Notes: generated by a model not told the origin, from the letters alone. A stretch of DNA of 58,911 nucleotides, filler included, from Jimgerdemannia flammicorona (GCA_003990765.1; 3 parts of 3 records of this genome joined end to end with filler, not necessarily neighbours in it), one strand, 5' to 3'. Positions 3,716-38,700 are shown, numbered from the whole stretch's first letter. Made by a program: numbers and translations.

Positions 3716-6162
3716 TGTGATGTACACAATTGACAATAGAGTACCAGTGACTGCTAAGATCAGATGACATAATGGCATGACAATCAAACAGACAGCCTGA
3801 CCCATTAGGTGATCATCCCAAAAGAAGACAAGATGATCTGAGCCAAAATGAAGACCATGTTATTTAAGGAACCATACTCCGCCTCAAGGATCAGCACCAA
3901 AGAACCAAGTACCCACCACACAATGCCTCCCATTCGCCGAACCAACCAGACCTCCTGCCGCTCTACCCCTTTGCCTGGCCCAAAGACCCTGATCTTTGAA
4001 GCTATCAAGAAAGCCATCTGGCGCCCAGATACTTCTGAACACTTGAACTTCTATACTGAGGACCTTGGACACTTCATCAACTATCGATACATAATGACCC
4101 AACAGCTCAAAGACACTACCGAACGAATGACCCTCTGGCATGACTATGAAATCGGACACCGCCTTCACAATGAGACTCAAGAAGGTGACCAGGAAGACCT
4201 CATTGCCGAAATGTTAACCACCAGCTGGCTAATCAAGAGAGCCCTCTGTGTCTATTAAATCTTCTGCCATATTCCCTGGGCTATAGTACACTTGCAAGGA
4301 GTAACAGCTGGCAGCCTCTCCCACCTTTCAACTGAAGATGCTAACTGGATAGAATCTGAAGTAGCCAACACTATTGGTAGCAACTGCATCGCCATAGGAA
4401 GCCAATAAACCAAACCTACTCAGCCAGGTTTCCACACTACCCCACTCCGAGACAACCATCAAGGTCACCTAATGAGTCTTATAGAGATATTTGAAGGACC
4501 GCCCATTACTATAGAAGCACCCATTGGAGCTACTCCAACCACCCACTATCTTGTCAGCCACAATTCACATCTCATCATTTGGGAACTGAATCAAGAAGAA
4601 GCTCAAGAAGTTCCTGTCTTTAAGGAGGAGGCCCAAGAACTCCAAGGCCCTGCCCCTGAAGAAACCCCCTCTGATACTGAAACTAACGAGTCTTCAGAAG
4701 AAGAAGAGGAGTAACAGAGAGTCTACCAGTCCTCTGTCCACATTCAAGCTATTCAAGGGTTGGAGAATGTTGTTGAAGATGACTGACCACTTTTCTACCC
4801 CCTCATCTCTTGGCTGGTGCTTCCCCCCTTTGAGGAGAGATATGATGAAGAAGAAATCACAACCCAGCAAGATTTGCCCACCATGGACAAAGGGTACTAT
4901 TTTCTCTAGAGTACCGCCCATCAGCCGTGAGAACCCAGCTTTTGTCAGCAAGTCCATTTCCAGTGTTGCTACCCAGTACCACCATTTTCAGCATTTTGTC
5001 AGCAGGTCTGAATTCAGCATTGCCACCCTCCACAACCATTTCTGGCAACAATCATCATATCATGTCAGCTCATCCAAATCCAGCATTGCTACCCAGTACC
5101 ACCATTTTCAGCATTTTGTCAGCAGGTCCGAATCCAGCATTGCTATCCCCTACAACCCAATCCATAGTAAACAATAGCCTGCACCTCGCATTGTGCAAAC
5201 CAATAGCATAAGTTCGCCACAACGTAGTATACCTTAGCCTTAGTCGCGCCCCCTCCCCCCCATAGCTAGCAAACTTGTATAAATAACCCATATCCTTGGA
5301 GTGAATAAAGCCTCAGTCAGACAGTTTTACAGAGAAAACACACTGCCTCCAAGAGACCAGATAAATTCTGAGAACAAGATAACAACCTAGAGCAACGGAT
5401 TGCTCAGAAGTTTGAGTTAAAGAATTTTCTCTTGCCACGGAAAGAAAGAAAACATTACCCGACTGCTGCCATTCGAGACCCGAGACCCAGCCAAGGATTA
5501 AAGAACCCAAGGAACCCAAGTTACCCAGCCAAAGATTCAAGACCCAGAAACCCAAGGAGACCCAGCCAAGGATTCTAGACCATGACTGCCATGCATTCAG
5601 ACTGCCATTTGGACCTCCCCGCATTCAGACCACCATTCGGACCTCTGCGCATTCAACCGCCATTCGAGATTCAAGACCCGGAAAACCAAGGAACCCAAGG
5701 ATACCCAGTCAAACAAGACCGCAGCCTAAGACCTGCCAAGATACTCGAACGACTGCCAAAGACCCAAGTTATCCTGCTGTTTCAAGCTAAACAAGATGGA
5801 CAAGCAAGTCATCGACCGATTCCCGACCTACTGCACCATGAACCGCTTAAAGTCAAGACCATCGCCCACTTTAATTGACCGCATAAAGAGCAAGCCCATC
5901 ATCACCGCATAAATTCAAGTTTGCCGCTAAGTTAGCCGCTGCCAGGAAACTTAGCCAGCATAATCGCCGCCCTTATCCACTAAACAATTGAGCCATCATC
6001 GAACAAACTCCTGCTATCAATTACCGCACGAATCGAATGAGTCAATCATATGATCAACGACCTGCAAACATCACCAATGCATTCAGTTATCCATCACATG
6101 CTTCACCAGTGGCACACATTGAGCCGCGCAGTCGAAGTTCATTATACATAACCAATGCCACA
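3716..6162 (+). repeat. 3' LTR of element A (~2447 bp)
   Basis: Starts TGTGATGTACAC immediately after the PPT, the same start as the B LTRs at 26555 and 36564. Ends CCACA. TATAAATA at 5278-5285, AATAAA at 5304-5309. Confidence 0.88.
3923..4909 (+). pseudogene. LTR(U3)-encoded accessory ORF, ~328 codons, unknown function
   Basis: One reading frame from MPPIRRTNQTS to KGYYFL*, broken only by point-mutation stops. Homologous to the ORFs in the B and C LTRs. Acidic C-terminus. Confidence 0.85.
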
Positions 6163-7880
6163 ATATATATATATATCTTTCTATTATTAAAAAGTAAAGC
6201 TTTGGACAAATTCAAAGAATTTAAAGCAATTATCAAGAATGAGACAGTATATAGAGTATATATTATATATTTAGAAATAGATATAAATATATTAATAGTA
6301 TATTTAAATTATTTTTAAAAAAAACACAGTATATGCTATCAAATGATAGCTTCCTATATACTCTTACAGAATAATATAACCAAGTAATTTAACTATATAA
6401 CTATAGAAATAATATCTATAATAATTAATATAGCTAGATTATTATATTTTTACTAAGCTGAAGCTATTAATATAGTAATATACATCTGTAATTAATCTAT
6501 TTCTCAGGCTCTAAATAAGGAATCTGGTAATAACAATAAGTAATTCAGAGATAATGATCTTATCTTAGAAGAATTTTAGAGTAAAATAAAGTCTGATATA
6601 TTCCATCTATATATTTAAATATATTATAAAGAGAGGTATTTTTATTCAAATTGTATAGATTATATATTTCACACATTATGATAAATAATATAAAACTAAT
6701 AGAATAGTATAAGTTATATACTAATATATTGAGTTGTTGTCCCAACACTCTCACTCAACAAGATATATAACTCAAAAAGAATACAAACTAGAGTAAAAAG
6801 TAATATAATATATATAAAAACTAAAACTATATATGTATAACCCTATATTTAAGAGATTTTTATAGGTTAAAAACTATTCTGAAATATATCTAAAATATCT
6901 AAAAAATAATATAAATAATTTATATAATCCACTCATAGATAAGGAATATAATTAATATAGATATAAAATGTATTATATAGTAAGAGAGGCTTTTTATAGT
7001 TTGAAAAATATCTCAAAATTATCTGAATATTAGTATATTGCTTATAAGATCCATTCAATTAATATATTGTTCAAACTTCAGCTTTGAAAGGGCTTTTATA
7101 AGTAAATTAGCAATTATATACTCTATAGAGATGTATTCTAAATATATAATATTGTTTTCTATACATTCTTATATAAAATGATATTATATATTGATATATT
7201 TTATTCTATTATGATATATTAGATTCTTGGTAAGTACAATAATAGACTGGTTATTCTGGCATAGTATAGTACTCTATTTTTGAGTAAATTTAAGTTCTTT
7301 TAACAGTTTACAGAGCCAAATGGCTTCTTTTATTACTAATGATAATATCTGGTACTTTGTTTATATTAATGATATTGCTATAGATAATTGCTTATGTATT
7401 TATTATAAGATGACTTCTTTGTAATTTTTGCCAATATAGAAGAGATATCTAGTTATAGATTGGTAGTCATCTAGATTACCTACCCAATTGATATCATATA
7501 TATCAAATAGTTAGATATTATTTCTCTTATTATTGCTTCTACTTAATCTAATATTACTACTATCTAATATAAGCATATAGTATACTGATCTCTTTAAGTA
7601 TTTAAAAACTCTCTTGATGATACTCTAATATAAATTATTATAGTAAGAGAAATACTACATTATCTTATTCATAGTATATGATATATCAGACCTTATTTCT
7701 AGTATAAGATATATAAGAGAACCAACTACTTGGCAATATAGAATATTATTATCTTTAGTACTATTCTTGGTAAGTATATTGTCATCATCCTCAAAAATAG
7801 TATTCAGTTTCTTAACTTTACAAAAATATCTATAGAAGTGCCAACAGACTTGTATTTATTCATATTAAAATATTTGAGAA
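6163..7880 (+). mobile_element. Heavily decayed Ty1/Copia pol relic (integrase core, RT), target of the element A insertion
   Basis: LLKSKALDKFKEFKAIIKNET; KHSICYQMIASYILLQNNITK*FN (resembles GI.HQ.TAPYTP.QNGVAERFN); FY*AEAINIVIYICN*S (resembles FWAEAVNTAVYIRNRS). Right boundary approximate. Confidence 0.8.
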
Positions 7881-9807: not shown

Positions 9808-11406
9808 TGTTGCGTAGTAGTTGCTGAGTCTTTTAAATATGCCAGATTCTCTTCAAGGTATATCTCTTAGACTAACTCAAGCTTGTTATAAGTAAGTTCT
9901 TATTGGAGTGCCTTCCTAAGGTCTTATAGTCCTCAAACTTCTTATCTTTAAACTGTCTTGTTATCTCTTAGATTTCTTATAAGGAAGTGTGTGTATTATA
10001 CTGAGAAGACTGACTTTATTTCAGAGGAAATAAGAAGGGTATTTATACAAAATATATTTCAATGGTTGCTAAGATATAAAGCTAAATATAAATTTCAATA
10101 ACTAAAATAAAATACCAGGACAGAAAAAACTGCTAAGTTCCAGGGTTGGCACTGATGGTTGTACAGGTTCAGAATGCTGGTATAATTCAGTGTTACATCA
10201 AAATGCCAGTACTGGCATTATTCAGTATTACATCAAAATGCTGGTACTGGTATTATTCAGTATTATATCAAAATGCTGGTGCTGACATTATTCAGTGTAA
10301 CCAAGGGACTTAGAGCAGAATGTTCAAGACTATAGAGGCTTCATCACCAGAGGTCAGAATGTCTTCAAAGGAGATGAGGTCCACAAATGTCTCATTTATC
10401 TCATCATTGTTATTGTGTAGATTGTGTATCTCGTGTATGTCACATATTTCATGTACTTCGATATCATGTGGGATGATATCATTGCCAATGATATTATCAC
10501 ATTTGATGGTGAGAAGGAGGTCTGGAGCTCTCCAGTCTATAAGGTTCTCTTCTACAAAATAGAGAACAAATGTTGGGTCTTGGGGAGATCTAATCTAGAT
10601 GCTTGGGCTTTAGAATACTGAGATCAACCCTTGCAGGAATTGGTCTGAGTTGTCCTGGAGAATAGGATACCAGAAGTCTTCTACTTTATCACTATTGAGA
10701 GTGATAGTGGACTGGGCTTCTGTAGCCACTCTGGCTTCTAGTGTATTGATATAGTGGGATGACAGATCTCTGAAATCTGAGACTCTAACATACTCCAAGT
10801 TGGGGATCAACCATAGTGCATGCCTGAAGATCTGATAGATCTTCTTAGCTGTCCTTGTTTTACATATATCCATGAGAGTGGCATCTTGTAGCTCTTGAGT
10901 GCTGGTCTGTGGGAACTCCTGGTAGAGGAGGTTTCCTATTTCATATTTCTGCCACATTTGGAGGCATTCAGTAGCAATGGTAATCCTGGTTTCCATTTCA
11001 CAGTGGTAGAGGATATAGTGATAAGGGTTACCTGTACCCAGGTTGATACTAGGAGTTCTACTTGAGTGGGTTCTCATAGCTCTTCTGATGTCTTGGAATA
11101 TTCTTTCTTCAACTAAGGTATCTTGGTGGTTCCTTGACCTTGAGGTTTGGTGGGCAGCAGGAATTTCAATTATAGTGAGTCTTTGAGCTATTTTGGGATT
11201 AGTGGGTCTTATTGGTTGCTGTTACTGCAGTTCTTTGATTCTTCTTTTATATTCCTCAAGATGCTTGTACTGTGGTCACAATGACTCACAGTTGGTCATA
11301 ATTGCTCATCTCATATGCCATATAATCTTCTTGTGCTCTGATCTAGTGGCTTATAAGGAAAGACTGTCTCATATGCTGATGTCATCATTCTGGAGTCACT
11401 GTTACA
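9808..11406 (-). repeat. 3' LTR of element C (1599 bp)
   Basis: Direct repeat of 17092-18690, preceded on the minus strand by PPT AGAAGGAAGA. Confidence 0.93.
10310..11164 (-). pseudogene. LTR-encoded accessory ORF (C, 3' LTR copy; start codon mutated)
   Basis: Includes ORF-track entry 10610-11077 (…MWQKYEIGNLL…KKIYQIFRH…). Colinear with 17594-18448. Confidence 0.85.
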
Positions 11407-11789
11407 TCTTCCTTCTGAATAAGGATCTTCTTGAGCATTCTTATTCATTGGTCCAGCTCTGAAAAATTTGCTGATCCCATAACCTCTGGCAAGGGGATGA
11501 AAAGTGGTGTTTATGGGCTGGTATCTTTCCTTTGTATTTTGGCATAATGGTGAAGGGTCACTCCCTTCATATAGAGCAAGGGCCTGATTCTGATCTTGAC
11601 CAATCAGTTGATGATTCGAACTTCTCTGGCTTCAAAAGTCTCATGGATGAGTAGTTGCTAGTGTCATATCTCTTAGAGAATGGTCCAGACAGATAGTCTG
11701 CTAGTCACAAGATATGCTGTTATGATTCACAGACTAGAATCTCATGGGCAGTCATCACATTTTGCTTCTCTTATATAGGTTCATGGTAC

Positions 11790-14700
11790 TCCTTGAGTCT
11801 GTTCTTATATACCATGGTAGGTAGTATGGTCCCTGAGATTTTTCTAAGCCAGAAGGTAGTTCCCTTGATATCTTGCACATAGAAGAGTTCTTCCCATTTG
11901 GGCTCTAGTTTTCGTAACTATGAGGCTTCTATCATATTGTGATACAGTAGGAAATTTTCTCCAATTTGGATGGGTTCTAGGGTCTTGTAATTCTTTTCCA
12001 CATTCTTCCTTATTAGTGCTGGTGACTTGATAATGTAATCTTCAGCCTTCTTCCTGATTTAGTATAGCCTCTGGATTTCTGCATCAACCTATCTCCAAGT
12101 AAGGTCTAGATTTGTGGCTAAGATTCCATCAGAATCTTCTTCTCTGAAGAGCAGCTCTCTTGGGGTAAAGTATGTACTCTGTGACCATATGTCTCATAGA
12201 ACAGAGAGGGCAGTTGGGAGATAGTTATCCCAATTCTCATATATCTCTGAGATCTTCACTAGGATGTTCTTGAGGGTCTTATTGGTTCTCTCTATCTGTC
12301 CATTTTCTTGAGAGTGGTATATGGTGGTCTTGATGTGCTAGATATTATATTTCTGATACATTATCTTATAGAATTTATTGACAAATTCTGTGCCATGGTC
12401 TGTTGTGATTTGCTTTGGTTTCTTGTAGTAGCAGATGATTTCTTGATACAGGAAGTCAGCTATAGAGAGGACATTGGCTTCTTGTAATGCTCCTACTTCT
12501 ACCCATTTGGTGAAGAGGTCTACAATAACTATAATATAGCAGTTCCCTGATAGTATTACTGGTAGTGGCCCAATGATATCTATAGCAATATGGTGGAAGG
12601 GGATAGGCTCAATTCTTGATGACCCAGGTGCCTGATCTTGCTGATCTTATTTCTGGTTTTGGTACTTATCACACCCTTTGACAAATTGGTGCAGGTCTTC
12701 TTCCATCTTGGGCCATCACATGGTTCTTCTTGCCTTGTCATATATGTTGGTTCCTTCTAGGTGTCCTTGCTCATATACTTTCTTCATTACTTGATACTTC
12801 TTGTATTCAGGTATTACTAGCTTTCCTCCTTTTCTGAGTGTAGTGTTGTCTAGTTCAAACTGTTTTCAAGTCCAGTTGATGATGGTGATTTTCCAGGGTT
12901 TGAGGTGGTTGGACATCTTCCACTGTCCAAGATAGCTGATTAATCCATAGTATAGCTTCTTATTCATATTAAATAGTCTTGATGGGGGTGTTTTGGAGTA
13001 TCCTTGAGAGTGCATCAGCATTGGTGTTGGTTCTTTCTGAGCAGTGCTTGACAGTACAGTCATACTCTTGCAGCCTGTAGATCTATTTAGCATATATTCC
13101 TTTGAGGTTCAGAGTGAGGAATAGCCAGGCAAGAGCAGAATGGTCTGTTTGAATAGTGAAGTGTTTCCCAGCTAGGTAGTAGTGAAACTTATCTACTGCC
13201 CAAACTACTGCTAAGCATTCAAGCTTGCATGATATATAGTTCTGTTCTACTCTATGAGTACCTTAGCTTGCATAGGAGATGACATATTCATGTCCATCTT
13301 TCTTCTAAGCTAGGACTGCTCTAAGTCCTATAGCACTTGCATCTGTCTGCAGGATGAATTCTAGGTTTCAATCTGGTCTTCTGAGGATAGGTACTTGGGT
13401 CAATCTGGTCTTGAGTTCATTGAAAGTTTCTTGGCACTCCTTGGTCCATTCAAATTTGGTTTCCTTCTTCAGTAGCTCGTAGATAGGTGCTGTAATGTTG
13501 GAATATCCTTTGATAAATCTTCTGTAGTAGCTGGCCAGTCCAAGGAAGACATGGACTTCTGTGGTTGTTCTAGGTCTCAGGTAGGCTACAACAGCCTCAA
13601 TCTTTATAGGGTCTGTATGGATACCAGTCTGGTCGATAAGGTGTCCTAGGTAGGCGATTTCTTGAGCTGCAAACTTGCATTTCTTGGGCTTGATGTAGAG
13701 GCCATGCTCCTTGAGCTTCTTGAGGGCTAGCTGTATGTAATTGATATATTCTCATACAGTGTTGCTGAAGATAATCATGTCATCAATATAGATAAAGAGC
13801 CATTTTTCAATCTCATTACTAAAGACTCTATTCATCATTTGCTGAAAACTTGCAGGGGCATTGTATATTCCAAACAGTATTTGCAAGTAAATATAGGTGG
13901 TATCAGGTGTAATAGAAGCTGATTTCTCACTGGCATCTTGAGTGAGACCAATTTGATGGAAGTCTGAGAACAGATCCAAGGTGGTGTAGTATTTAGCTTT
14001 GCTTCCAAGGGTAGTAAGGATTTCTTGAATATTTGGCAAGGGCTGCCTATCATTCTTGGTGATGGCATTGAGCTTTCTGTAGTTAATGCAGAGTCTTGGT
14101 GCAAACTCTCCAGGCTTGCTTCCTTTCTTTGGGGCAAGGACAATGGGTGAAGCCCAGGGACTGATAGCTTGCTTAATGATTCTGGCTTCTTCCATTTCCT
14201 TGAGTTCTGCTCACAGCCACTCTCTGTAGACAGGGGGTATGGGTCTGGCTTTCTGGTAGATGGGCTTGGTATCACTAGTGTCAACTTTATGGTAGTACTT
14301 GGGTTCTTGATTGTGGATATCCCTGAAGTCTGTCACAAGTACTCCTTTGTTCTGATACAGAATCTTGAGAGGTTGTTCCTCCAGAGGAAAGTTTTTTCCA
14401 ATGATATATATGTGCTTGTTCTGGTCCTTATCTTTCTTGTATTTAAGTTCAATAATCTTGGTGGCAGCATAGGCTCCTCTTCCAGTAGATCCAAAGCCTT
14501 GTTCTTCTCTCTTGGTCTTGATAAGTTTGATGGCTTCAGTGATCTTGGGTTTCTTGATTTCATGGATCAGTATCTGGCCAATCCTATCATACTTCTTAAC
14601 TTTGAATGGGGTGGTGGGGTTGTGATTCCTGACTATGAGGAAGATCTCACCAGTGTAATTAGGGTCAATTACTCTTCCTTCAACTGAGATTTCGCTTTTG

Positions 14701-16966: not shown

Positions 16967-17070
16967 TTCTATCTTATTTTGAATTCTTGTAGGAGTGACT
17001 CTTGTAATCAGAGTAGTTGTTATGGGGTTGTTCGTTTTTCAGCTTTAAAGTGAGGGATTCGTCTTGAATT

Positions 17071-17088
17071 ACCAGCCAATGGGCACCA
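17071..17088 (-). promoter_or_regulatory. Primer-binding site of element C (tRNA not identified)
   Basis: TGGTGCCCATTGGCTGGT, 3 nt inside the 5' LTR end. Confidence 0.7.
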
Positions 17089-17091
17089 AGT

Positions 17092-26554: not shown

Positions 26555-28688
26555 TGTGACGTACACAATTGACAATGGAGTACCAGTGACTGCTAAGATC
26601 AGACAACATAATGGCATGACAATCGAATAGACAGCCTGATCCATTAGGTGATTACCCCAAAAGGAGCAATGATAATCTGAGCCAAAAGGAAGACTACATA
26701 TATTATTTAAAGAACCATACTCTACCTCAGGAATCAGTACCAAAGAACAAGTATCCACCATACAATGCCTCCTATCCACCACCCCAACCAGACCTCCCGC
26801 CACTCTTCCCCCTTGCCTGGCCCAAAGACTCTAATCCTTGAAGCTATCAAGAAGGCTATTTGGCACCCAGACACCTCTGAACATCTGAACTTCTACACCA
26901 AGGATCTTGGATACTTCATCAATTACCAGTACATAATGACCCAATAGCTCAAAGATACCACTGAATGAATGACCCTCTGGTATGATTACGAAATTGGACA
27001 CCACCTTCATAATGAAACCCAAGAAGGCGACTAGGAAGACCTCATTGCCAAAATATTAACCACCAGCCGGCTAATCAAGAGAGCCCTCCGTGTCTACCAA
27101 ATCTTCCACCATATTCCCTAGGCTATAGTACACTTACAAGGAGTGACTGCTGGAAGTCTTACCCGTCTCTCAACTGAAGATACAGACTGGATAGAATCAG
27201 AAGTAGTCGATTCTATTGGTAGTAACCGGGTCATTATAGGAAGCCAACAAACTGAGCCCACTCAACCAGACTTTCACACCACTCCACTCCAAGACAACCA
27301 TCAAGGTCACCTAATGAGTCTCATGAAAATCTTTGAAGGACCACCCATTACCATTACAACACCTGTTGGAGCAACCCCAACTACTCACCACTCTGTCAGC
27401 TACAATTCGTATCTCATCGTTTGGGAACTAAATCAAGAAGTCCCAGAAGTCTCTACCAATATGGAAACTGAAGGATCTGAGGAAGAAGAGGAGGAATAAA
27501 GAATCTACCAATCCTCTGTCTGCCTTCAAGCAGTCCAAGGGTTGGAGAATGTCATCGAAGATGATTGGCCACAATTCTACCCCCTCACCTCCTAGCCAGC
27601 ACTCCCACTCTTTGAAGAATGGGATGAAGAAGTCACAACCCAGCAAGATGATTGGATCACTGACGAAGGGTACTTTATCATTCAGTGATCCAACGTCTGT
27701 TTCCTCAGTCTGGTCAGCCAACATTTGTCAGCAAGTCAGCAACATCCATTTTCAGTGATACTACCTACAACATCCATATCCAGCACTAGTACTTGTCTTA
27801 TCCCAATTCGGCATAAACAATTGTCACACCTGTTTTCAGTGATACCCCCCACAATATCCATATCCAGCACTAGTACTCATCTTATTCCAATTCAGCACAA
27901 ACAATTATCACACCCATATTCAGCAAATAAACTACCACAACATAGTATACCTTAGCCCCCCCCCATAGCTAGCAAATTTGTATAAATAACCCTATATCTT
28001 AGAGTGAATAAACCTCAGTCAGTTTGTGTTTAAAAGTAAAAAGGATTACAGAGAAACCTCACTACCTCCAAGAGACCAGATAAATTCTGAGAACAAGATA
28101 ACTAGAGCAACGATCACTCAAGGTTTGAGTTAAAGAATTTTCTCTTGCCACGGAAAATGTTCAAGATTCGCCACTAAGGAAAGCTGTACGAAAAGCTATT
28201 CAGTTTAGTTTAAAGACCCGCCACTAAAGGAAAGCCACACAAAAAACCACCAACCACTGCCAAGATCCCGCCAGCCCAACTGTCGTACATTCGACCCAAC
28301 TGCCGTGCATTCAGAACCAACCGCCATTCGAGATTCAAGACCATGCATTCGAGACCCGCCATTCAAGTGTTAAGACCCCAGCCAAGGAACCCAAGGATAC
28401 TTAGCTTAGGAAAGCCAGCACCATCATCATTCACCTAACAAGTCAGATGGATGAGTTCCCCTTTTACCCGCTGCGCCATGAACTATGTACGTTCAAGAAG
28501 TAATTCACTGCTAGGAAAATTCATCAACCACTAAACAACCAAGCCTCCACTGTATAAATCGGATGAACTGATCACATGACCATTGACCCACAACCATCAC
28601 AAATGCACTCAGTCATATACCATGCACTCCACCAAGTGGCACATTGAGCCGTGCTTGAAGCAACTAGGGATACAAACTGCACACCACA
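26555..28688 (+). repeat. 5' LTR of element B (2134 bp)
   Basis: TGTGACG…CCACA, followed by the PBS. TATAAATA at 27981-27988, AATAAA at 28007-28012. Confidence 0.93.
26765..27688 (+). pseudogene. LTR-encoded accessory ORF (B, 5' LTR copy), ~307 codons
   Basis: MPPIHHPNQTS… to …EGYFIIQ* in one frame. Confidence 0.85.
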
Positions 28689-28691
28689 TTT

Positions 28692-28709
28692 TGGGGGCTC
28701 AACTGGGAA
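28692..28709 (+). promoter_or_regulatory. Primer-binding site, tRNA-Pro-like
   Basis: TGGGGGCTCAACTGGGAA; restoring two CpGs gives TGGGGGCTCGACCGGGAA, close to the tRNA-Pro PBS of MLV (TGGGGGCTCGTCCGGGAT). Confidence 0.75.
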
Positions 28710-31700
28710 GTTTTCAAAAGACTTGACCATTTGGCTCAAGAACCCAGCTATCTACAGTGGAGAACTTAGCAGGACCAAGTCAGCAACCAAACCAGGGGTA
28801 GCAACAGCCCTCCTCAGCAGAAAAGAAAGCCCACACCCTTGTCAGAACAGTAGCCAGGACCCTATTCAACACCAGTAGCCAGAAAACTGAATCAGAAGAA
28901 AGAAGTGACCCAGATTACAGTTTGACTTTAAGAGAAAGGAGACAACTCAGAGGACAACCAGAACCGCCCCTTCAGATCCAAGACTTAGGCCAAGAAGAAG
29001 AAGAGGATATCCCTGAGGAGTATCAGACCCTTATCTATAGGAAGAACTCAGACAGAAGTGACTACATAACTACTGTTGTTACTCGAGTCACTCTACTAGA
29101 CTGGGTATACTTTGAAACATCAGAAGGAGAAGAGGACTATCATCCATATCAACCAGAGCAAGATGACAATTGGAGATCAGACCATCAAAGAGACGAATTC
29201 AATCTACACTATTATTCAGACAGCAACACAAACCCACAATAAGGCGAACAAGACCTCACTACTTCACAACAGTAAGGGGCAGACAAACTCACTATCAGTT
29301 ATATCAGTCCACTCCCACCATCAGTTGCTTGAACTTCAGTACCCTGGTCACTCACACCTCGTCACTATCACTAGTCAATTAGAAGATCTCCACCACTACC
29401 CAGGACTTCAACCCCAGCATTAATTAGAAGAGCCAGAATACCCTCACCCTCACCAAGACACCGCCCTCTGCCAGCACCACTAGTTCATCAAGTACTAGCA
29501 CCACCACCTTCCCCATCACCCCGAGGATCTGTCAGATCCCCTACCCCTGAACAATACTCAGATAGTGAAGATGAGCCAGACATGAGCTACCTTCAGAAGT
29601 TCCATGGTGCAGACAATGAAGATATTGAGGAATTCTTTAGAGAAATTGAAGTTCAAGCAGCCGCCAAATAATGGGATGCTGCAAGAAAACTCAGAATTGT
29701 GGAGTCACTCTTGAGAGGACCAGTCCTACAGAGGTATAATCAAGCCAAGTAAGCTGGAGGAGGAATCCATGCAGAGGAACTGAATGACAGCCTTCAACCT
29801 GATAGAAACCATGTAGCAAGGTACATGATTCACAAAGCCTGGCTCTGTGCCCAGTTCAATGGATTCAAGCACCAATAAGAAGTACAGGAGGCTTTGACCT
29901 ATATGAGCCAAGCTGCCAATGAAACTCCCAAGAGTTTCTACCATCAGATTCAAGCTCAAATGATCAAGGCAAACCTTCAACCAGCAGTCCAACTGGCTCT
30001 AGCCTCAACTACCTTCCTCAATAGCTTATACCCAGAACTCTGAAGGCAAGTTATTAGGATGGGATATCGAAACATTGAACAGCAAGTTGCTGGAGTACAA
30101 GGATGTTGGGAAGCAGATTATAGACCAGTACAACAAGTACAAGGCTATCATGAGCCAATCCGAGCTGAAACCCCAAGGACCCAAGGAACAATCATGGAGC
30201 AAGAGAATGCCTCCCTCAGAGCCCAGATAGCCAACTATGAGAACAGACCAGCACCCACAAATCCGACTCCATTCAGGCAACCACAGCAGCAGCCACCATC
30301 AAGAGTTCAAGAAGACCCCATGATAATGCTCACCAAGCAAATGAAGGACCTGGCCATCACAGTTGCCCAGCTAAAAAACCAAGGTAGAAGACAATAAGAC
30401 TACCGTCGTGATAACAGACCAGACTACTGGCAACAAGACAACAGAGGTCCTGCCCCTGCACTACCAGCTGCAACTACAGTCTCATCAGTGACTGGTTCCT
30501 ATGGTCCCACCTGCTTCAACTGCGGAAATCAAGGCCACATCCAGAGGAATTGTCCAAGGAACCAATCTACCCAGTCCAATGATAGAAATGTCAACCTCTT
30601 TCAGGTAGATGAGAGACTCAGGAAATGGAAGAAGAAGCAGCCTGGCTCCATGGTCAAGAAGATGACATCTACCCATACTTTAAGGCTTTTCCATCCAAGG
30701 TGACATGGGAAGCTGCCCCCATAGAGACCAGAGGATGAGGAAGACCACGAAGGAACCCCCCACCTCAACTGCCAGTAACAATATCCACAGGTAAGCATCT
30801 GCAACATAGCCATTCTTCTTCAGACACTCCACAAGAATAGAAGAAGTGAGTTAGAAGAGATACTCCTGAACCAGAAGCCGGACCATCTAGGACAACCCCC
30901 AGCTCTACCCTGCCAGACCTTGGAGAAGATGAGCATATGAGCATAGAATCTTCAGCTGATGAAATGCCCATCAGGAATGAGAGACTACACCTCAAGGGAC
31001 TAAGACACTGAAGAAGCAGCAAGCCCCATGCAGCAGCCTCACTTTGGGAACATATCCGCCTACAGAATACTGGTCTTATAGTTGAGCAAGTCCTTAAGAA
31101 TGCACCAGAGGTCAGGCAAAAATTCCTGAAAGAAGCCAAGGAAGATACCAAGAGACTTCCAGTCTAAGGACCACACACTTAAGAACCTAGCACTATCCAC
31201 ACAGCCCATGAGAGCCAGTGACATGAACATCAATCTATAAGACTCGCCAATGGAAAAGTGCATGGTGAAAATGCCAGAATTCTTATCAATACTGGAGCAG
31301 CAGTATGCATCATCACCCAAAGGATGTTGGAGTGAATTGGATGGGGAATAGATGAAGGAATCAAAGCAAGAGTTATCATGGCTGATGGATCAGCTTCCAC
31401 ACCCCTTGGACTTGTCAGAGACATCCCCATTCAAGTCAGAAAGGCCTGCCTCAATGTACCCAAAGCTGTCATGACCCCTGCAACCTTCTATGACCTGATC
31501 CTGGGAACTGACTGGTTAAGCTAAGTTGGAGCTAATGTAGATATCAAGAAACAACTCCTGGTCTTCTCCATTTATGGACAGAAGTACAAGGTGCCCATTG
31601 ACTTGAAAGGATTATCCAAAAGGATGAATCAAGCCTCAGAAACAGAATGGCAAGGACATGGCGACACCCCCACTACTACTGAGGATGAAAGTGAGGCCAA

Positions 31701-32715
31701 TTTCTTGCAAAAACTAGGAAGTAATTTCGATGCCCCAAGGGACCAAGAAAGTGAACAAGAAGACTCTTTCATTGGAGTTATTGGTGTTGAAGGTCTGGAA
31801 GAAAGCATCGATAGAGCCATTAATGCAAGGACAGCACTTGAGTTTGCAGGACCATCTGCTCAACCACCACCACCACTGGTAGAAAATCAGATCATGTGAG
31901 CCTTTCGTTAAGGCATATGTGAACATTTCATCAGCTTCCACTCACCAAGAGATGATTGCAGCAATTGCTGAATCCTGGATCTCAAGAAGGTTCCAATGCC
32001 AGAAATTGATGATAAGGACAAATTGAAGCAAGCACCATCCCACAGTTGAATACAACCTCCAACCCTGAAGACCTTCAAGAAGATCTATAAGGGAGGACAG
32101 AAGATCCTCGCCCACCAAATATTTGAGTCCCTTACCATCAAAGGAGAAAGCAGCAGCTCTTACACTATCACCCGGGCCCTCCAGATCACACAGTCCACCT
32201 ATGACAAGTATCGGAAGAGATTTCCTACCAGTAGAGAAGTCAAACAGCGAAATGAAGACTTTGTCAAGAAGGAACATTGTGATTGTAGAAAGACCTTTAC
32301 CTGCCACTGGTGTGAATATCGAGATGTTCACCTTAGCAAAGATGTCTATAAGAGCCAAGTTAAGAGAAAGGATCTCACCCTGCAAGAACCTCGAATTCGC
32401 TGGGCCTGTTGGAAGTGCAAAGAAATCAACCATGAAGGAGATTGCAAGTTCAAGAGCAAGACCTCTATCTGAGATCTATCATTGGAAGTTCTTGCCATCA
32501 TTCACTGGTACTGCTGCCCTCATCAAGGAAAAGAAGATATCAATCTTGCCTTCATCCTTATGGAAGCTCTAGACCCTCTAGGAAAGACTGGATTCAATTA
32601 CACAAGAAACTCAAAGACAGGAGCTCACTGGCCTTTCTTCAAACTGGAGTGCATAGACTTCTCACCTACAATGGCAACAGCTGAAGCACCATTTCTCAAA
32701 GCTCAACCAATTATC

Positions 32716-33120
32716 CAGGTCAAGCTGCTTTCACCCTGGGCACAGCCACCTCTTGCACAAACAGAAGGATCAGTTGGTTATGACCTCTGTCTCCCCTACC
32801 AAGTAAGAATCTGACCCAGAAGTACTAGGATTTTTGACCTACAGATTGCACTTGCTATACCACCTGGGCATTATGGACAATTGGCCTCAAGATCCTCATT
32901 GGCAACCAAAGGAGTCACAGTAGAAGGAGGAGTCATCAATCAGGACTACTGAGGTCCCTTGAAGGCTATTATCCACAATTCTAGTAGAACCAGCCAATTA
33001 TTCAGTCCTATAGAAGCCATCTGCCAAATCTTGTTTATCAAGACATCACAGCCGACCATCCAAGAGGTAGACCAACTAGAAGATACCAACAGAGGACAAG
33101 GAGGCTTTGGAAGCACCAAT
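32716..33120 (+). pseudogene. dut: dUTPase domain (element B)
   Basis: SVGYDL, SRSSLA, GGVINQDY*G, AICQIL, RGQGGFGST. Confidence 0.93.
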
Positions 33121-33485
33121 AGAAATCTATAGACACCACCTATCGAGGTTCATTTAGCAACAGTTGCTCAATTCTAACAAATGAGACCCCACATCTGCTG
33201 CCCAATCTGAGCAAGAGAAGACATCCTCCTACAGCCCTACCAGCAAAAAGGCCTAGATGTGCACCTACCAGTAGAAGCAAACAACTTGATATTTGCACCA
33301 TCACTGGAGCTTCAAAAGGAATACCACATCCTCCTGGCTGAAGAACGAATTTATGACCAGATGTCACCGATCCATATCCCTATCAGAAACTTGGGCTTCG
33401 AAGTGATAACTATCCCCAAAGGAACAACACTGGGATATTTCAAACCACTGATAGACACCTATGAGGAAGAAGTCTTCGAATTCTT

Positions 33486-33531
33486 GGGAAACAGCAAGCC
33501 CTCTCTGGTGAGACTGATGGTATCAGAGAGG
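33486..33531 (+). promoter_or_regulatory. Putative -1 programmed ribosomal frameshift signal (G_GGA_AAC plus 10-bp stem)
   Basis: Slippery heptamer in the ORF1 frame; CCTCTCTGGT (33500-33509) pairs with ATCAGAGAGG (33522-33531). RT is in the -1 frame in both A and B. Confidence 0.75.
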
Positions 33532-36502
33532 AAGACTCAGCAAATTCAGCAATCAAAGCTGTTGACATCGAGACAACTCTAACCAAGGACCAGCAACAAC
33601 AGATACAGGAGTTGATAGAGGAGTACAAAGATATATTTACTACCACATATGATAACTTCCCACCATATCAATATGGAGAACACCCTATACATACTAGAGA
33701 TGCAAGACCAATCTGACAATGACCCTACTGAACACCACATCATCTGATTGAATTCGAACAACAACACATAGATGAAATGCTATGAAATGGAGTCATCAGA
33801 CCATCATCAAGCCCCTGGGCTTCACCAGCAATCATAGTACCAAAGAAAGGAGGATGGAGATTAGTCATGGATTTCAGAAAACTCAACAAAGTCACCACAG
33901 AAGATGCCTACCCACTGCCAAGAATTGATGACCTCATCAATGCCCTCAGAAAAGCCAAATACATGACCACTACCGACCAGTTCCAAGGATTCCAAGTAAT
34001 ACCTATTGCCAAAGAAGATATCTGCAAGACGGCCTTTATCACTAGATGAGGACAGTACGAATACCTACAAATGCTCTTTGGACTCTGCAATGTACCCGCC
34101 TCATTCTAATGAATGATGAACTATGTCTACTGGGACCTCATTAGAAGAAATGTACTAGTGTACATAGATGATGTAATCATCTACTCTGAGACATTCAAGC
34201 AGCATTTGCAAGACCTCTGCGAAGTATTCAATACTATTCAAAATTCAGGACTCAGACTCAATGCCAAGAAGTGCTTCTTCAGAAAACATCAAGTCGAATA
34301 TCTGGGATATGTTGTCTCAGCTCAAGGAACACATGCCAACCCCCACAAGGTGGAGAAAGTCAAGAACTACCCAACCCCGACCTCAGCAAAGGAGACCCTA
34401 TCTTTCCTTATGCTGGTATCCTACTATTGACGATTCATCCCAAGATTTTCAGATAAGGCAGCACCTCTCCGAGATATCTCCAAGAAGGACCAACCATTCT
34501 ACTGGAAAGAAGAACAACAAAAGTCATTCGACCTACTCAAGAAGGCCCTTACCGAAGCCCCTGTCCTGGTGGGACCAGACTTTGGCAAACCATTCATCCT
34601 GGCAACTGATGCCTCAGCCTTAGGACTTGGATCAATTCTATCTCAGCAAGATGACCAGAAGAGAGAGCATGTTATTGAATATGCTAGCAAGGCCACAAAT
34701 GAAATACAAGCGAACTATGGAGCCACTAAGTTGGAATGCTTAGCAGTAGTTTGGGCTGTGGACCACTTCCAACACTATCTCTTGGGAAAGAGATTTGCCC
34801 TCATCACTGACCATCAAGCTCTATAATGGTTGTTCAACAAGCCAGAGCCCTCAGGAATCTTCGCTAGATAGATCATGTCTCTGCAAGAATATCAGTTCAC
34901 TATTGTCTACAAGAAAGGTACTAAAAATTCCAACATCAATACTCTGTCAAGAATCCCGTGAAACCAACAAGAAGAGAAGGAGCCCCCACAAGAGAAGGCT
35001 GCTTCCCGCTCACCCAAATGAACCAAGAATTGCACCTTGCCCTCACCTGGAGTCTGCACCATAGAAGCTTCAAGAAAGGAATCCAACCAGCCCACAAGTT
35101 GTTTATCTAAAGGAATTTCAAGAAATTCCAAGAAGGCGATGGTGAACTTTGGAGAGTTGAAGGAGAACAGTATACCCAAGTTCCAAGAGAGGAAGAAATA
35201 TTGAAGATCCTGACAACAAATCATAACCAAAATGCACACCGAGGAATTGGTGCCACAATCGCAAGAATCAAGAAGTGATACTGGTGGCCCAAGATGAGAA
35301 AACAAATTTCAATGCACATTCAACAATGTGATATCTGCCAAAGATACTGACAAAAGCCTACCAACAGAGCACCATTAATACCGATTGCAGCACCAGCTAG
35401 AGCCTTTCAAAGACTAGGAATAGACATTATTAGACCCCTACCAGTAACTAGCTAAGGAAGACACTACATCCTTACTATCAAAGACTACCTGACAAAATGG
35501 CCTGAAGCCTTTGCCATTGAGACTGCCGATGCCTAGACAATTATTGGGATCCTGTATGATGAAATTTTCAGCCACCATGATGTGCCCAAGGAAATCATTA
35601 CAGACTAAGGCCGAGAATTCATCAACCAAGCCATGAAGACCTTTGTGAGCAACTTCAAGATCAAGCTACAACCAACAACAGCCTACCACCCATAGGTAAA
35701 TGGACTCACTGAACAAATGAACCAGACCATCAAGCGAGGTCTCAGTAGAACCGGAGATCAACTAAACTGGGATATCTATCTACCGGCAATTCTGTTCAGC
35801 ATCCATACCTCTAAGGCAACCACTACCCAACAGACCCCCTTCTATTTGGTATATGGCTGAGAAGCACAAGATCCTACTGAACCAGTCCAGCTAGATCTGT
35901 CAAAACGAGTCACAGAAGAGATCACCTGGTTACATGACATATGCCAGCAAGCATGAGGATTTATCACCAAGGCACAAGAATGACAAAAGAGGTACTACAA
36001 CCACAAAGCCAACCTCGAACCCCTGCTCATTGGACAAAAGGTTCTGGTGTACCATACTATCATAGAAGGAAATTGGAGTACCAAGCTTGAACCAAAATAG
36101 AAAGGCCCCTATCTCATACACCAAGTATTCTCGAACCACACTTATCAACTCAAGACCTTGGATGGAGTTATACTCAAGACCAAGATACACCACAACTGCA
36201 TAAGACTCTACTACTCAAGAGAAGCAAAACGCATTTGAACAATCCTGTTCACTCTGTCTGTGTCATCTCCACCAGAGATATAATGGACATTTTACTCGGA
36301 ACTCAAGAAAGCCAACAACATTGGAACCAGACTCAAGCCCATCCATGTGACAGACATTGTTACTAAGAAATTGCCTTGAATTACAAGAAATACTATTTCC
36401 AATGGGTTTGAACCCCCAGCCATGACTATGGGAGCCCTCGCCCTAGACAAGGATGGCCAGTCCTCACAAATGTGCCAACATTCTGCTCATCCCTGGAGTT
36501 AA
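33489..36502 (+). pseudogene. pol: RT-RNase H-integrase of element B
   Basis: Same motifs as A (YIDD, ATDASALG, HHCC, GPY). Confidence 0.94.
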
Positions 36503-36563
36503 GACCACCCAACTCTGTGTAATTCTCACTGCCGAGAATGGCTCTAATTTTGCAAGGGGCAGA

Positions 36564-38700
36564 TGTGATGTATGCAATTGACAATGGAGTACCGGTGACT
36601 GCTAAGATCAGACAACATAATGGCATAACAATCGAATAGACAGCCTGACCCATTAGGTGATCACCCCAAAAGGAGCAATGATAATCTGAGCCAAAAGGAA
36701 GACTACATTATTTAAAGAACCATACTCCACCTCAGGAATCAGCACCAAAGAACAAGTACCCACCACACAATGCCTCCTATCTACTGCCCCAACCAGACCT
36801 CCCATCGCTCTTCCCCCTTGCCTGGCCCAAAGACTCTAATCCTTGAACTATCAAGAAGGCTATTTGGCACCCAGACACCTCTGAACATCTGAACTTCTAC
36901 ACCGAGGATCTTGGACACTTTATCAATTACTGGTACATAATGACCCAACAGCTCAAAGATACCACTGAACGAATGACCCTCTGGCATGATTACGAAATTG
37001 GACACCACCTTCATAATGAAACTCAAGAAGGCAACCAGGAAGACCTCATTGCTGAAATATTAACCACCAGCCAGCTAATCAAGAGAGCCCTCTGTGTCCA
37101 CCAAATCTTCTGCTATATTCTCTGGGCTATAGCACACTTACAAGGAGTAACTGCTGGAAGTCTTACCTGTCTCTCAACTGAAGATACAGACTGGATAGAA
37201 TCAGAAGTAGCTGACTCTATTGGTAGTAACCAGGTCGCTGTAGGAAGCCAACAAACCGAGTCCACTCAACCAAGCTTTCACACTACTCTACTCTAAGACA
37301 ACCATCAAGGTCACCTAATGAGTCTCATGGAAATCTTTGAAGGACCACCCATTACCATTACAACACCTGTTGGAGCAACCCCAACTACTCACCACCCTAT
37401 CAGCTATAATTCGCACCTCATCATTTGGGAACCAAATCAAGAAGTCCCAGAAGTCCCTACCAATATGGAAACTGAAGGATCTGAGGAAGAAGAAGAGGAG
37501 GAACAAAGAATCTACCAATCCTCTGTCTGCTTTCAAACAGTCCAAGGGTTGGAGAATGTCATTGAAGATGATTGGCCACAATTCTACCCCCTCACCTCCT
37601 GGCTGGCACTCCCACCCTTTGAAGAATGGGATGAAGAAGTCACAACCCAGCAAGATGATTGGATCACTGACGAAGAGTACTTTACTATTTAGTGATCCAA
37701 CGTCCATTTCCTCAGTCTGGTCAGCCAACATTTGTCAGCAAGTCAGCAACATCCGTTTTCAGTGATACCACCCATAACATCTATATCCAGTACTAGCACT
37801 TGTCTTATCTCAATTCGGTGCAAACAATTGTCACACTCATTTTCAGTGATACCACCCACAACATCCATATCCAGCACTAGCACTCATCTTATCCCAATTC
37901 GGCGCAAACAATTGTTGTACCCATATTCAGCAATTAAACCACCACAACATAGTATACCTTAGCCCCCCCCCCCATAGCTAGCAAATTTGTATAAATAACC
38001 CTATATCTTAGAGAGAATAAACCTCAGTCAGTTTGTGTTTAAAAGTAAAAAGGATTACAGAGAAACCTCACTGCCTCCAAGAGATCAGATAAATTCTGAG
38101 AACAAGATAACTAGAGCAACAATTACTCGAGGTTTGAGTTAAAGAATTTTCTCTTGCCATGGAAAACGTTCAAGATTCACTGCTAAGGAAAGCTGTATGA
38201 AAAGCCATTTAGTTCAGTTTAAAGACCTGCCACTAAGGAAAGACTCATGAAAAGCCATTCAGTTCAGTTTAAAGACCCGCCACTAAAGGAAAGCTGCACA
38301 AAAAACTGCCAACCGCCACCGAGATCCCGCCAGCCCAACTGTCATGCATTCGACCCAACCGTCATGCATTCGACCTGACTGCTGTGCATTCAGAACCAAC
38401 CGCCATTCGAGATTCAAGACCATGTATTCGAGACCCACCATTCAAGTGTTAAGACCCCAGCCAAGGAACTCAAGGATACTTAGCTAGGAAAGCCAGCACC
38501 ATCGTCATTCACCTAACAAGTCTGACAGATGAGTTCCCCTTTTACCCACTGCGCCACAAACTGTGTATGTTCAAAAAGTAATTTGCCCTTAGAAAAATTC
38601 ATCAACCACTAAACAACCAAGCCTCCACTGTACGAATTGGACAAACCGATCATGTGACCATTGACCTGCAACCATCGCAAACATACTCAGTCATATACCA
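36564..38700 (+). repeat. 3' LTR of element B (last ~66 bp displaced by an insertion)
   Basis: Matches the 5' LTR up to AGTCATATACCA at 38700. Confidence 0.9.
36770..37692 (+). pseudogene. LTR-encoded accessory ORF (B, 3' LTR copy)
   Basis: Same ORF with a 1-bp deletion at ~36847. ORF-track pieces 36940-37296 and 37318-37692. Confidence 0.85.

Follow-up and report, generated by a model that had tools for sequence, protein, structure and literature searches.

Two distantly related Gypsy-type families share a conserved gene that sequence comparison places wholly within their long terminal repeats

The long terminal repeats (LTRs) of retrotransposons are seen as non-coding control regions, which annotation pipelines mask, and solo LTRs pass for inert relics. 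Protein genes in this position have so far been described mainly in complex retroviruses. The first-pass annotation of a 58,911-nucleotide stretch of Jimgerdemannia flammicorona DNA (filler included; hereafter the window) raised the question of whether the LTRs of two divergent dUTPase-bearing Gypsy families hold an accessory gene of their own.

The elements concerned, A, B and C, are env-less Ty3/Gypsy retrotransposons carrying a dUTPase, and Pfam agrees with their first identification as such. Their parts are as follows:

3716..6096, + strand: LTR of element A, 2.38 kb (self-blastn, end read from the sequence)
26555..28622, + strand: 5' LTR of element B, 2.07 kb, boundaries TGTGAC...ATACCA
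28623..36563, + strand: internal region of element B, with gag CCHC, dUTPase, RT, RNase H and integrase (Pfam)
36564..38700, + strand: 3' LTR of element B, 2.14 kb, with a polypurine tract just before it (36552-36563)
17097..18690, - strand: 5' LTR of element C, 1.59 kb, start TGTAAT and end ACTACA
11407..17096, - strand: internal region of element C, with gag CCHC, protease, dUTPase, RT, RNase H and integrase (Pfam)
9813..11406, - strand: 3' LTR of element C, with the polypurine tract AGAAGGAAGA at 11407-11416, upstream in the sense orientation

The LTR of element A is the 3' LTR for the internal region 1-3715; it begins with TGTGATGTA, abuts the polypurine tract GCAAGGGGCAGA at 3704-3715 and shows a PBS-like leader directly 3' of it. 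Self-blastn shows 90% identity between 1-4873 and 32849-37656, 88.7% between the two LTRs of B and 89.5% between those of C. The termini are those of Ty3/Gypsy (Metaviridae) elements, TG...CA direct repeats with a polypurine tract abutting the 3' LTR (TGTGA...ACCA preceded by GCAAGGGGCAGA in B, TGTAA...TACA preceded by AGAAGGAAGA in C), and the domain order gag(CCHC)-PR-RT-RNase H-IN is found in B and C, with the dUTPase between PR and RT in C (Pfam). Clean target-site duplications were looked for at the elements and not found.

The intervals first annotated as LTRs proved to be those of the gene copies, and the true LTRs, of 1.6-2.4 kb, are the ones given above. Five sense copies of the gene are present at the positions first described, and tblastn with intact relatives as queries gave matches at 3923-4906, 26765-27682 and 36770-37689 on the + strand and at 18448-17597 and 11164-10313 on the - strand, with no sixth copy in the window:

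3923..4909, + strand: gene copy A, pseudogene with four in-frame stops
26765..27688, + strand: gene copy B-5', pseudogene with six in-frame stops
36770..37692, + strand: gene copy B-3', pseudogene with two stops and one frameshift near codons 17-30
17594..18448, - strand: gene copy C-5', pseudogene with four in-frame stops
10310..11164, - strand: gene copy C-3', ATG lost (ATT instead) and two in-frame stops

The copies had been taken for ORFs of 285-330 codons, but none of the five is open, and the peptides quoted for them read through the stops, that is, they had been mentally repaired. Copy A shares 245 of 327 aligned residues with the intact relative P0013 (tblastn E 1.5e-152), and its stops fall at P0013 positions Q112, Q162, Q268 and W292. 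Copies B-5' and B-3' share 211 of 306 and 205 of 291 residues with the same protein; the stops of B-5' stand at Q, R, R, W, Q and W codons, and the match of B-3' is divided between two frames. Copies C-5' (194 of 269 residues, stops at Q, Q, Q and W codons) and C-3' (184 of 269) match the intact relative P0002, and the stop-to-stop frame of C-3' is open over its initial 203 codons (10613-11221). Only one ORF of at least 150 aa (ATG start, standard code) overlaps any copy. Together the copies carry 18 in-frame stops, 17 of which are Q, R or W codons in the intact relatives, one frameshift and one lost start. All 72 private changes of B-5' and B-3' are transitions, and the CpG observed/expected ratio is 0.19. 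All five window copies are dead, and they decayed by transition mutations.

Within the LTR the gene occupies the 5' two-thirds, beginning ~210-245 nt past the LTR start. A motif census with alignment showed TATA-like boxes, and Tandem Repeats Finder showed repeats, at the following positions:

3861..3867, + strand: TATA-like box TATTTAA in A, 62 nt before the gene ATG
26704-26710 and 36709-36715, + strand: TATTTAA boxes in B
18529-18535 and 11245-11251, - strand: TATAAAA boxes in C, 87 nt before the ATG
5278..5318, + strand: core block TATAAATA in A, 3' of the gene, with AATAAA at +26/27 and TCAGTC at +34/35
27981-28020 and 37990-38029 (+ strand), 17292-17331 and 10008-10047 (- strand): core block in the other LTRs
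4936..5157, + strand: tandem repeat in A, 54 nt x3.9
27742-27923 and 37756-37915: tandem repeats in B, 84 nt x2
17477-17580 and 10177-10296: tandem repeats in C, 35 nt x3

The spacing of the core block is identical in the six LTRs examined (five in the window and that of the metagenome contig L001, described below), and in the census each LTR has no more than one to three TATAWAW motifs on its sense strand. In our reading the core block combines the element's poly(A) signal and initiator with its main promoter, and it probably marks the U3/R border. Since the gene stands between the 5' end of the LTR and the block TATAAATA-AATAAA-TCAGTC, the motifs place it probably in U3, upstream of a conserved TATA, as the first-pass annotation had held; that annotation was also right that family-specific tandem repeats adjoin the gene, and these fall just downstream of it, between gene and core TATA. 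Its location, entirely within the LTR, means that both element ends carry the gene and that solo LTRs would keep it. A C-terminal extension of pol is ruled out by the in-frame stop before the ATG in A (3839-3841), C (11222-11224) and L001, and by the polypurine tract and LTR start that intervene.

We consider it likely that this is a genuine retrotransposon accessory gene wholly within the LTR, in U3 on the motif reading. Judged from the motifs, the TATA-like box before the ATG may act as a promoter. Each LTR would be a self-contained expression unit in which this box, 62-87 nt before the ATG, would drive a monocistronic mRNA of ~1.2-1.3 kb, polyadenylated at the site within the same LTR, and the product may work in trans for the whole family. 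In its full form, the proposal is that every LTR could be an autonomous cassette, with its own TATA, a 250-340 codon gene of new fold and its own poly(A), and that full and solo LTRs would supply a trans factor which raises transcription of the family via the U3 repeats or blunts silencing; we put this forward tentatively, as one possible model.

Expression in the retroviral style, in which the U3 gene has no promoter of its own and is translated from a spliced subgenomic RNA started at the main LTR promoter (donor in the leader, acceptor near the ATG), appears doubtful. MMTV sag and lentiviral nef are expressed mainly from such an RNA, and splicing would be enough because the 3' end of the genomic RNA contains U3; however, the ~200 nt before the ATG are A/C-rich with plain AG dinucleotides only (by eye), and a TATA-like box is present at a suitable distance instead.

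It is unlikely that the gene lies in R, with the TATA-like box as promoter of the genomic RNA and TATAAATA-AATAAA as a polyadenylation signal alone. Such an R would measure ~1.2 kb, and the gene would stand as first cistron both in the genomic RNA and in a short, prematurely polyadenylated one. In favour of this, A/B, C and L001 all have a TATA-like box at a similar distance ahead of the ATG, with an A at -3 and no other ATG between box and start codon, and the downstream block has TGTA and AATAAA followed by CA, which is sufficient for a poly(A) site. Against it, a perfect TATAAATA stands 34-35 nt ahead of TCAGTC in all six LTRs, which is classic promoter geometry, the tandem repeats lie immediately upstream of the core block like U3 enhancers, and a first cistron of 270-330 codons would prevent gag translation. 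Moreover, an R of ~1.2 kb, or an R+U5 of 1.4-1.9 kb, would be unusually long among LTR elements.

The case for a genuine accessory gene draws on intact relatives of 247-342 aa in public metagenome data, which comprise the A/B type, the C type and two further lineages:

P0005 (325 aa), P0009 (324 aa) and P0013 (331 aa): A/B-type intact relatives
P0001 and P0008 (247 aa each) and P0002 (271 aa): C-type intact relatives
P0015 (342 aa): third-type intact relative
L001, metagenome contig: fourth lineage, 323 codons, zero stops

L001 is a 1,345-nt contig without LTR ends and the single match of a metagenome scan with P0008; the scan with the joint alignment as query gave no relative. The other intact relatives are known as proteins alone, and the LTR setting was read for the window copies and L001 only. 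P0015 comes from a 4,848-nt contig and P0011 from one of 19,434 nt. An exhaustive profile search over 1.84 billion representatives gave just 12 proteins at E<=1e-3, among which there was no longer or domain-bearing host relative, and a word-based protein search with alignment A4 returned two proteins, neither new to the set.

The A/B and C proteins had been described as colinear without DNA similarity of their LTRs, and both parts were borne out: BLASTP aligned them colinearly over 199 aa (E 1.7e-17, 30% identity), hhalign aligned their profiles over 192 columns (probability 99.1, E 1.1e-18), and blastn of the LTR DNA (word 7, E<=0.01) gave no match. Between elements B and C, identity was 39-43% in RT, 54% in RNase H, 42% in integrase and 26-27% in the LTR gene, and gag gave no match at E<=1e-3. 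Judged from these alignments, this is a real gene with protein-level conservation across two divergent element families, and two distantly related Gypsy-type families share it wholly within their LTRs. Aligned over the ORF, L001 and the C copies disagree at 39% of positions. Under neutral simulation, a divergence of 31% gave a mean of 10 stops and none of 5000 runs remained open, while one of 10.5% gave 3.96 stops, and the real C LTR copies carry two and four. Comparison of L001 with C gave a saturated pS of 0.70-0.74 and a pN of 0.30, for a corrected dN/dS ratio of 0.12-0.19. The LTR pair of one dead element, necessarily neutral, already gives 0.40, however, and changes by codon position follow a pattern no different from that of this neutral pair (chi-square p 0.39 and 0.43). 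On these comparisons, the evidence for selection is that the ORF was kept open, rather than dN/dS.

These results bear on the highly improbable view that the gene arose as a fragment of a host gene, picked up by transduction in an ancestral LTR and kept as a passenger of no use to the element. LTR retrotransposons do carry transduced host sequence, according to the available part of one source (PMC7264820), and the protein has no assigned function. Nevertheless, the frame is open in at least four lineages, the LTR DNA is no longer alignable and RT is ~40% identical (B-C pair), neutral decay in the simulation would have closed the ORF, a longer or domain-bearing host relative is missing from the 12 profile matches, and transduced ORFs are typically present in one or few copies in the same portion of that source (PMC7264820). 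That no gene exists, only chance open frames in A-rich LTR DNA, agrees with the absence of an open copy among the five of the window, and is refuted by the A/B-C alignments, the intact relatives and the confident AlphaFold2 domain.

The protein is predicted by AlphaFold2 to be a folded, mostly helical domain of ~200 aa followed by a disordered tail. With 20 sequences, pLDDT ran at 75-98 across roughly residues 15-165 and lay under 50 at residue 232 and beyond; with 13 sequences the mean pLDDT was 44, and the structure searches used the 20-sequence model. The tail is proline-rich and strongly acidic (85-155 aa; in six relatives net charge -16 to -27 and pI ~4.1), and its alignment shows the hydrophobic motifs DLISF and LNF. 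The first-pass annotation had both proteins end in an acidic tail, but the A/B protein does not stop at the acidic run, since its intact relatives extend ~60 residues past it. The N-terminal domain has a pI of 5.6-6.8; it is not basic, and therefore direct DNA binding is not favoured. A folded domain with an acidic, disordered, hydrophobic-studded C-terminus matches the build of transactivators with acidic activation domains, a likeness of make-up only. The most plausible role would be that of a nuclear protein, soluble and working as an adaptor or activator, with the acidic tail bringing host machinery to the U3 repeats; alternatively, the product may counteract host silencing.

No membrane segment was predicted in seven relatives (maximum Kyte-Doolittle(19) value 0.47-1.09, usual cut-off 1.6), and an env-like protein is ruled out by this lack of a hydrophobic segment and by the position of the gene downstream of the polypurine tract. 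None of four proteins matched Pfam at E<=1, no Pfam family was shared by more than two of 20 members at E<=5, and PDB sequences gave zero matches at E<=10. With the whole model, Foldseek gave a best E of 0.43 against PDB and of 0.044 (TM ~0.1) against BFVD, and VIA-align a best Z of 5.1 over 48,161 chains; in the ESM Atlas, the top score was 0.89 with 130 shared features, under lead level. No match to a known family or fold was found, the fold statement covering the whole model only. The first-pass annotation had named closed ORFs, a non-significant alignment and a known domain as signs against the gene; intact ORFs exist, the A/B-C alignment is significant and no known domain matches.

Retroviruses offer the nearest comparisons. 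MMTV sag is likewise a sense ORF in U3, and hence in both LTRs, and its product is a type II membrane glycoprotein made by a vertebrate retrovirus; the protein described here, in contrast, shows no type II transmembrane segment (Kyte-Doolittle, seven relatives) and no viral sequence or fold match, and its element is an env-less Ty3/Gypsy. The spumavirus accessory genes tas and bet, at the 3' end, run into U3 and would be the closest functional analogy to the proposed model, for Tas carries an acidic activation domain at its C-terminus, is active at promoters of its own element and is made from a separate, internal promoter; however, tas begins upstream of the LTR whereas the present gene lies wholly within it, and BFVD gave no sequence or fold likeness to tas/bet. 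Nef is a soluble adaptor with short linear motifs, N-myristoylated (Met-Gly start) and with partial U3 overlap. Lentiviral nef, as a 3' accessory gene in U3, would be a comparable case, but the LTR gene proteins begin with Met-Pro, as in the intact relatives, and show no fold match to Nef (Foldseek PDB, BFVD). At the search values given above (PDB sequences E<=10, Foldseek 0.43, BFVD 0.044, VIA Z 5.1), homology to Sag, Nef or Tas was not detected, a result that a distant kinship could also give. The portion of the literature available on LTR ORFs gave almost only MMTV-type cases and no described equivalent, in line with what had first been supposed.

If the gene is as described, a U3 protein gene kept across families whose RT is ~40% identical (B-C pair) would alter the non-coding view of LTRs. 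These elements would own a third, regulatory-type gene like complex retroviruses, its dosage would follow the number of LTRs instead of that of intact elements, and solo LTRs might be coding. Were the tentative cassette model true, env-less retrotransposons would have evolved a regulator in the style of complex retroviruses, sited to outlast element loss. A small protein family without fold match is added, which is directly testable, and the gene may account for the unusual length of these LTRs.

Extra ORFs are found elsewhere in LTR retrotransposons. Available parts of two sources describe family-wide aORFs, often of unknown function, in plant Ty3/gypsy elements (PMC7264820) and, in bdelloid rotifer elements, an ORF3 and a dUTPase between PR and RT (PMC5408684). 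Both kinds of ORF lie there in the LTR-gag interval or in the interval from pol to the 3' LTR, whereas here the polypurine tract and LTR start precede the gene; a count of 'within', 'in' or 'inside the LTR' gives zero in the available text of the first (PMC7264820). A dUTPase between PR and RT is reported, in the sources as available, from basidiomycetes and Tuber and also from rotifers and planarians. Among fungal Gypsy elements, the accessible portion of PMC2864245 lists Postia placenta PosPlaTy3-5, Phanerochaete and Tuber Tmt1, mentions in its Figure 3 legend, for some fungal element, an 'add. ORF' whose function is given as unknown, and describes the same backbone as that of the window elements, with the dUTPase between protease and RT.

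The first 38,700 nt of the window (1-38,700) are a nest of decayed, dUTPase-bearing Ty3/Gypsy elements of two families. According to Pfam, elements A and B, on the plus strand, show a gag zinc knuckle, dUTPase, RT, RNase H and integrase, and element C, on the minus strand, shows a gag zinc knuckle, protease, dUTPase, RT, RNase H and integrase, with the dUTPase located between protease and RT. Self-comparison with blastn paired 26555-28622 with 36564-38700 (88.7%, the B LTRs), 9814-11407 with 17098-18691 (89.5%, the C LTRs) and 1-4873 with 32849-37656 (90%). By self-blastn and tblastn, the five intervals which the first-pass annotation had taken as LTRs are instead five copies of an ORF, and the repeats are far longer.

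LTRs of elements A, B and C
3716-6096, plus strand: A LTR; start and preceding tract as in B, then a leader resembling the one that follows the B 5' LTR
26555-28622, plus strand: B 5' LTR; ends TGTGAYGTA...ATACCA
36564-38700, plus strand: B 3' LTR; ends as the B 5' LTR, polypurine tract GCAAGGGGCAGA immediately 5'
18690->17097, minus strand: C 5' LTR; ends TGTAAY...ACTACA
11406->9813, minus strand: C 3' LTR; ends as the C 5' LTR, polypurine tract AGAAGGAAGA immediately 5'

The A LTR closes an internal region (1-3715), and a leader (CACCAGTGGCACACATTGAGCCGCGC) like that after the 5' LTR of B follows at 6097-6150, which points to an LTR shared between elements or to elements in tandem. This leader ends at about 6150, interrupted by AT-rich DNA. 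The putative primer-binding sites of B (TGGCACATTGAGCC, 28623-28660) and C (TGGTGCCCATTGG, 17050-17096, minus strand) lie 14 and about 10 nt past the LTR, respectively, not immediately adjoining it.

Relatives of the protein encoded within the LTRs were sought by two word-based searches of 5.8 billion proteins, which found four C-type proteins, including P0001 (247 aa) and P0002 (271 aa), and three representative A/B-type proteins. The A/B-type cluster members P0005 (325 aa), P0009 (324 aa) and P0013 (331 aa) are stop-free, and extend about 60 residues beyond the acidic stretch previously taken as the end of the A/B protein. The relatives from the word searches all derive from metagenome-type sources, and their records either read 'hypothetical protein' or bear no label. 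Only 12 proteins at E<=1e-3 were retrieved when 1.84 billion representatives were searched exhaustively with a profile; they include a third type, P0014 and P0015 (342 aa), as well as the weaker relatives P0018, P0019 and P0021-P0023. A fourth type is found in L001, a metagenome contig of 1,345 nt which contains a 323-codon ORF without interruption.

The tblastn search with the intact relatives found the LTR gene at the five places where the first-pass annotation had located ORFs, and no further copies in the window.

LTR-gene copies, with identity to the intact relative and in-frame lesions
3923-4906, plus strand: copy A; 245/327 identical to P0013; 4 stops
26765-27682, plus strand: copy B-5'; 211/306 identical to P0013; 6 stops
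36770-37689, plus strand: copy B-3'; 205/291 identical to P0013; 2 stops and one frameshift
18448-17597, minus strand: copy C-5'; 194/269 identical to P0002; 4 stops
11164-10313, minus strand: copy C-3'; 184/269 identical to P0002; 2 stops, start codon now ATT

These copies had been described as open, but alignment to the intact relatives shows that none of the five is, and only one ORF of at least 150 aa (ATG starts, standard code) overlaps any of them. The 18 in-frame stops stand at codons for Q (10), W (4), R (3) and E (1) in the intact relatives; those at Q, R and W codons are all reachable via C>T or G>A, and the single stop at an E codon adjoins the frameshift. A joint alignment of the first 1.1-1.2 kb of the three LTRs A, B-5' and B-3' (3716-4900, 26555-27680 and 36564-37685) shows only transitions among the private changes of B-5' (41/41) and B-3' (31/31). 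CpG observed/expected is 0.19 in the window and 0.05 in element C. The decay spectrum of the B LTRs suggests methylation-linked and/or RIP-like mutation, and the five copies are ordinary dead insertions. C>T changes in the A/B LTR alignment are found at CpG but often at CpA too.

The similarity between the A/B and C proteins noticed in the first pass is real. BLASTP, with X placed at in-frame stops, aligned C with A at E 1.7e-17 (30% identity over 199 aa) and four other pairs at E 4e-17 to 7e-15, and profile-profile comparison of the A/B-type with the C-type proteins gave an hhalign probability of 99.1 and E 1.1e-18 over 192 columns. In line with the lack of obvious DNA similarity noted before, the LTR DNA of A/B and C has no blastn match (word size 7, E<=0.01). 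Between elements B and C, identities are 39-43% for RT, 54% for RNase H, 42% for integrase and 26-27% for the LTR gene; gag of B and C gave no match at E<=1e-3, so that the LTR gene is kept at least as well as gag.

Maintenance of the reading frame was analyzed by simulation of stops with the observed substitution spectrum. A divergence of 10.5% gave 3.96 stops on average, and the C copies have 2 and 4; a divergence of 31% gave 10 stops and none of 5,000 runs remained open. Of the ORF positions aligned between L001 and the C copies, 39% differ, and L001 carries no stop. The L001-C comparison shows a saturated pS of 0.70-0.74, a pN of 0.30 and a Jukes-Cantor ratio of 0.12-0.19, with pN/pS of 0.9-1.55 in shifted reading frames; however, the control pair, the two LTRs of the dead C element, where only drift can have acted, already gives 0.40, and L001-C differences by codon position show no departure from this neutral pair (p 0.39 and 0.43). 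Frame maintenance, the presence of uninterrupted frames in four or more lineages, and protein similarity that persists where DNA can no longer be aligned together leave long-term purifying selection as the only reasonable reading, one that rests on the frame and not on dN/dS.

None of four LTR-gene proteins had a Pfam match at E<=1, no Pfam family was found on more than two of 20 members at E<=5, and the family profile had no match among PDB sequences at E<=10. AlphaFold2 gave a poor model with 13 sequences (pLDDT 44); with 20 sequences, residues ~15-165 of P0015 were modeled at pLDDT 75-98 as a helical domain including one 37-residue helix, followed by two short strands near residues 204-216 and disorder from residue 232 on. 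Searches with the whole-protein model gave a best E of 0.43 in PDB and of 0.044 (TM about 0.1) in BFVD with Foldseek, and a best Z of 5.1 among 48,161 chains with VIA-align, which is noise for a helical model according to the tool's note; the ESM Atlas gave no lead. The alignment shows the conserved motifs YEIGH and HQIFRHxPW, the stretch LS..N.LEA.VA, and FxGP marking the domain end; the tail motifs DLI(S/N/T)F and P..LNF are shared by three of the four types. With a pI of 5.6-6.8, the N-terminal domain is close to neutral, and the tails of the six proteins of the A/B, C, P0015 and L001 types show a net charge of -16 to -27, a pI of 4.1-4.4 and 8-13% proline; the tail of the weak relative P0019 is non-acidic (net charge -4). 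No hydrophobic segment was found in the LTR-gene proteins. These results show that the product is soluble, consists of two parts and belongs to no known family. From this architecture alone, we guess that the protein may act in trans, as an adaptor or activator that would use its acidic tail to recruit host machinery, or alternatively that it may counteract silencing; the near-neutral charge of the N-terminal domain counts against simple DNA binding.

Downstream of the gene, alignment of the five LTRs and L001 shows one common block in otherwise unalignable DNA, which consists of TTGTATAAATA, ~18 nt, (G)AATAAA and then CCTCAGTCA. A motif census found TATAAATA, AATAAA at +26/27 and TCAGTC at +34/35 in all six LTRs, and just one to three TATAWAW per LTR on the sense strand. 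In our reading, this core block is both main promoter and initiator and has a poly(A) signal immediately 5' of the start, an arrangement with a very short R that some retroviruses also show. The family-specific tandem repeats reported in the first pass lie immediately upstream of the core block (54 nt x3.9 in A, 84 nt x2 in B, 35 nt x3 in C), in the manner of U3 enhancers. With the core block as promoter, the gene would be located in U3, and R plus U5 would come to some 200 nt in C and some 600 nt in B. The 60-nt core promoter/poly(A) block of L001 (1210-1269) shares 77-78% identity with 27973-28032 and 37982-38041, and is the sole DNA similarity of the C-like L001 to the B LTRs.

A second TATA-like box is found 5' of the gene: TATTTAA in A/B (one per LTR, 62 nt before the ATG) and TATAAAA in C and L001 (87 and 65 nt before the ATG, respectively). 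No ATG intervenes between box and start codon, and A is at -3 in A/B, C-5' and L001, which suggests that the gene may be driven by a promoter of its own and end at the poly(A) site of the LTR. Should this upstream box be the genomic promoter, the gene would lie within a long R; given the core block shared by all six LTRs, we consider this unlikely. With the core block as genomic promoter and the upstream box as that of the gene, expression would be monocistronic from every LTR.

The analyses show a conserved, selected gene inside the LTR, placed relative to the polypurine tract, the tandem repeats and the core block. On this anatomy, which corrects the earlier one, the feature is real and unusual: a probably U3-borne accessory gene of an LTR retrotransposon, encoding a new protein family. 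Its arrangement matches that of MMTV sag and, less exactly, nef and foamy-virus tas/bet; however, the LTR-gene protein matches none of them. In agreement with the first pass, no equivalent was found in the literature searched for LTR-internal ORFs and by keyword for fungal elements. In contrast to the gene described here, the additional ORFs of plant LTR retrotransposons, in the available part of PMC7264820, are outside the LTRs, and ORF3 of rotifer elements, in that of PMC5408684, is downstream of pol. The Figure 3 legend of PMC2864245 lists an 'add. ORF' for some fungal Gypsy element. A dUTPase between PR and RT is described, in the portions available, for basidiomycetes and Tuber (PMC2864245) and also for rotifers (PMC5408684) and planarians.

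The stretch between elements A and C (6150-9800) is very AT-rich (GC 0.22-0.26) and contains a Pol_BBD (Pol polyprotein beta-barrel) match at 9474-9824 on the plus strand, probably another, heavily mutated retroelement. A 17-nt unit, TTGGAGGCGAGGCAATA, and its complement form large arrays in both orientations at 19676-25843, with a higher-order repeat of 178/187/366 nt at 23348-24883. The filler positions 19576-19675 and 39246-39345 each consist of two 44-base N runs with 12 bases between; one pair adjoins the 17-nt arrays and the other lies ~550 nt past the B 3' LTR. Another repeated element spans 40743-58881 (43897-49664 against 52937-58700, 85.8%); its strand is strongly C-rich, with GC skew down to -0.52, and its sole Pfam match is RVT_1 at 45446-45910 on the minus strand.
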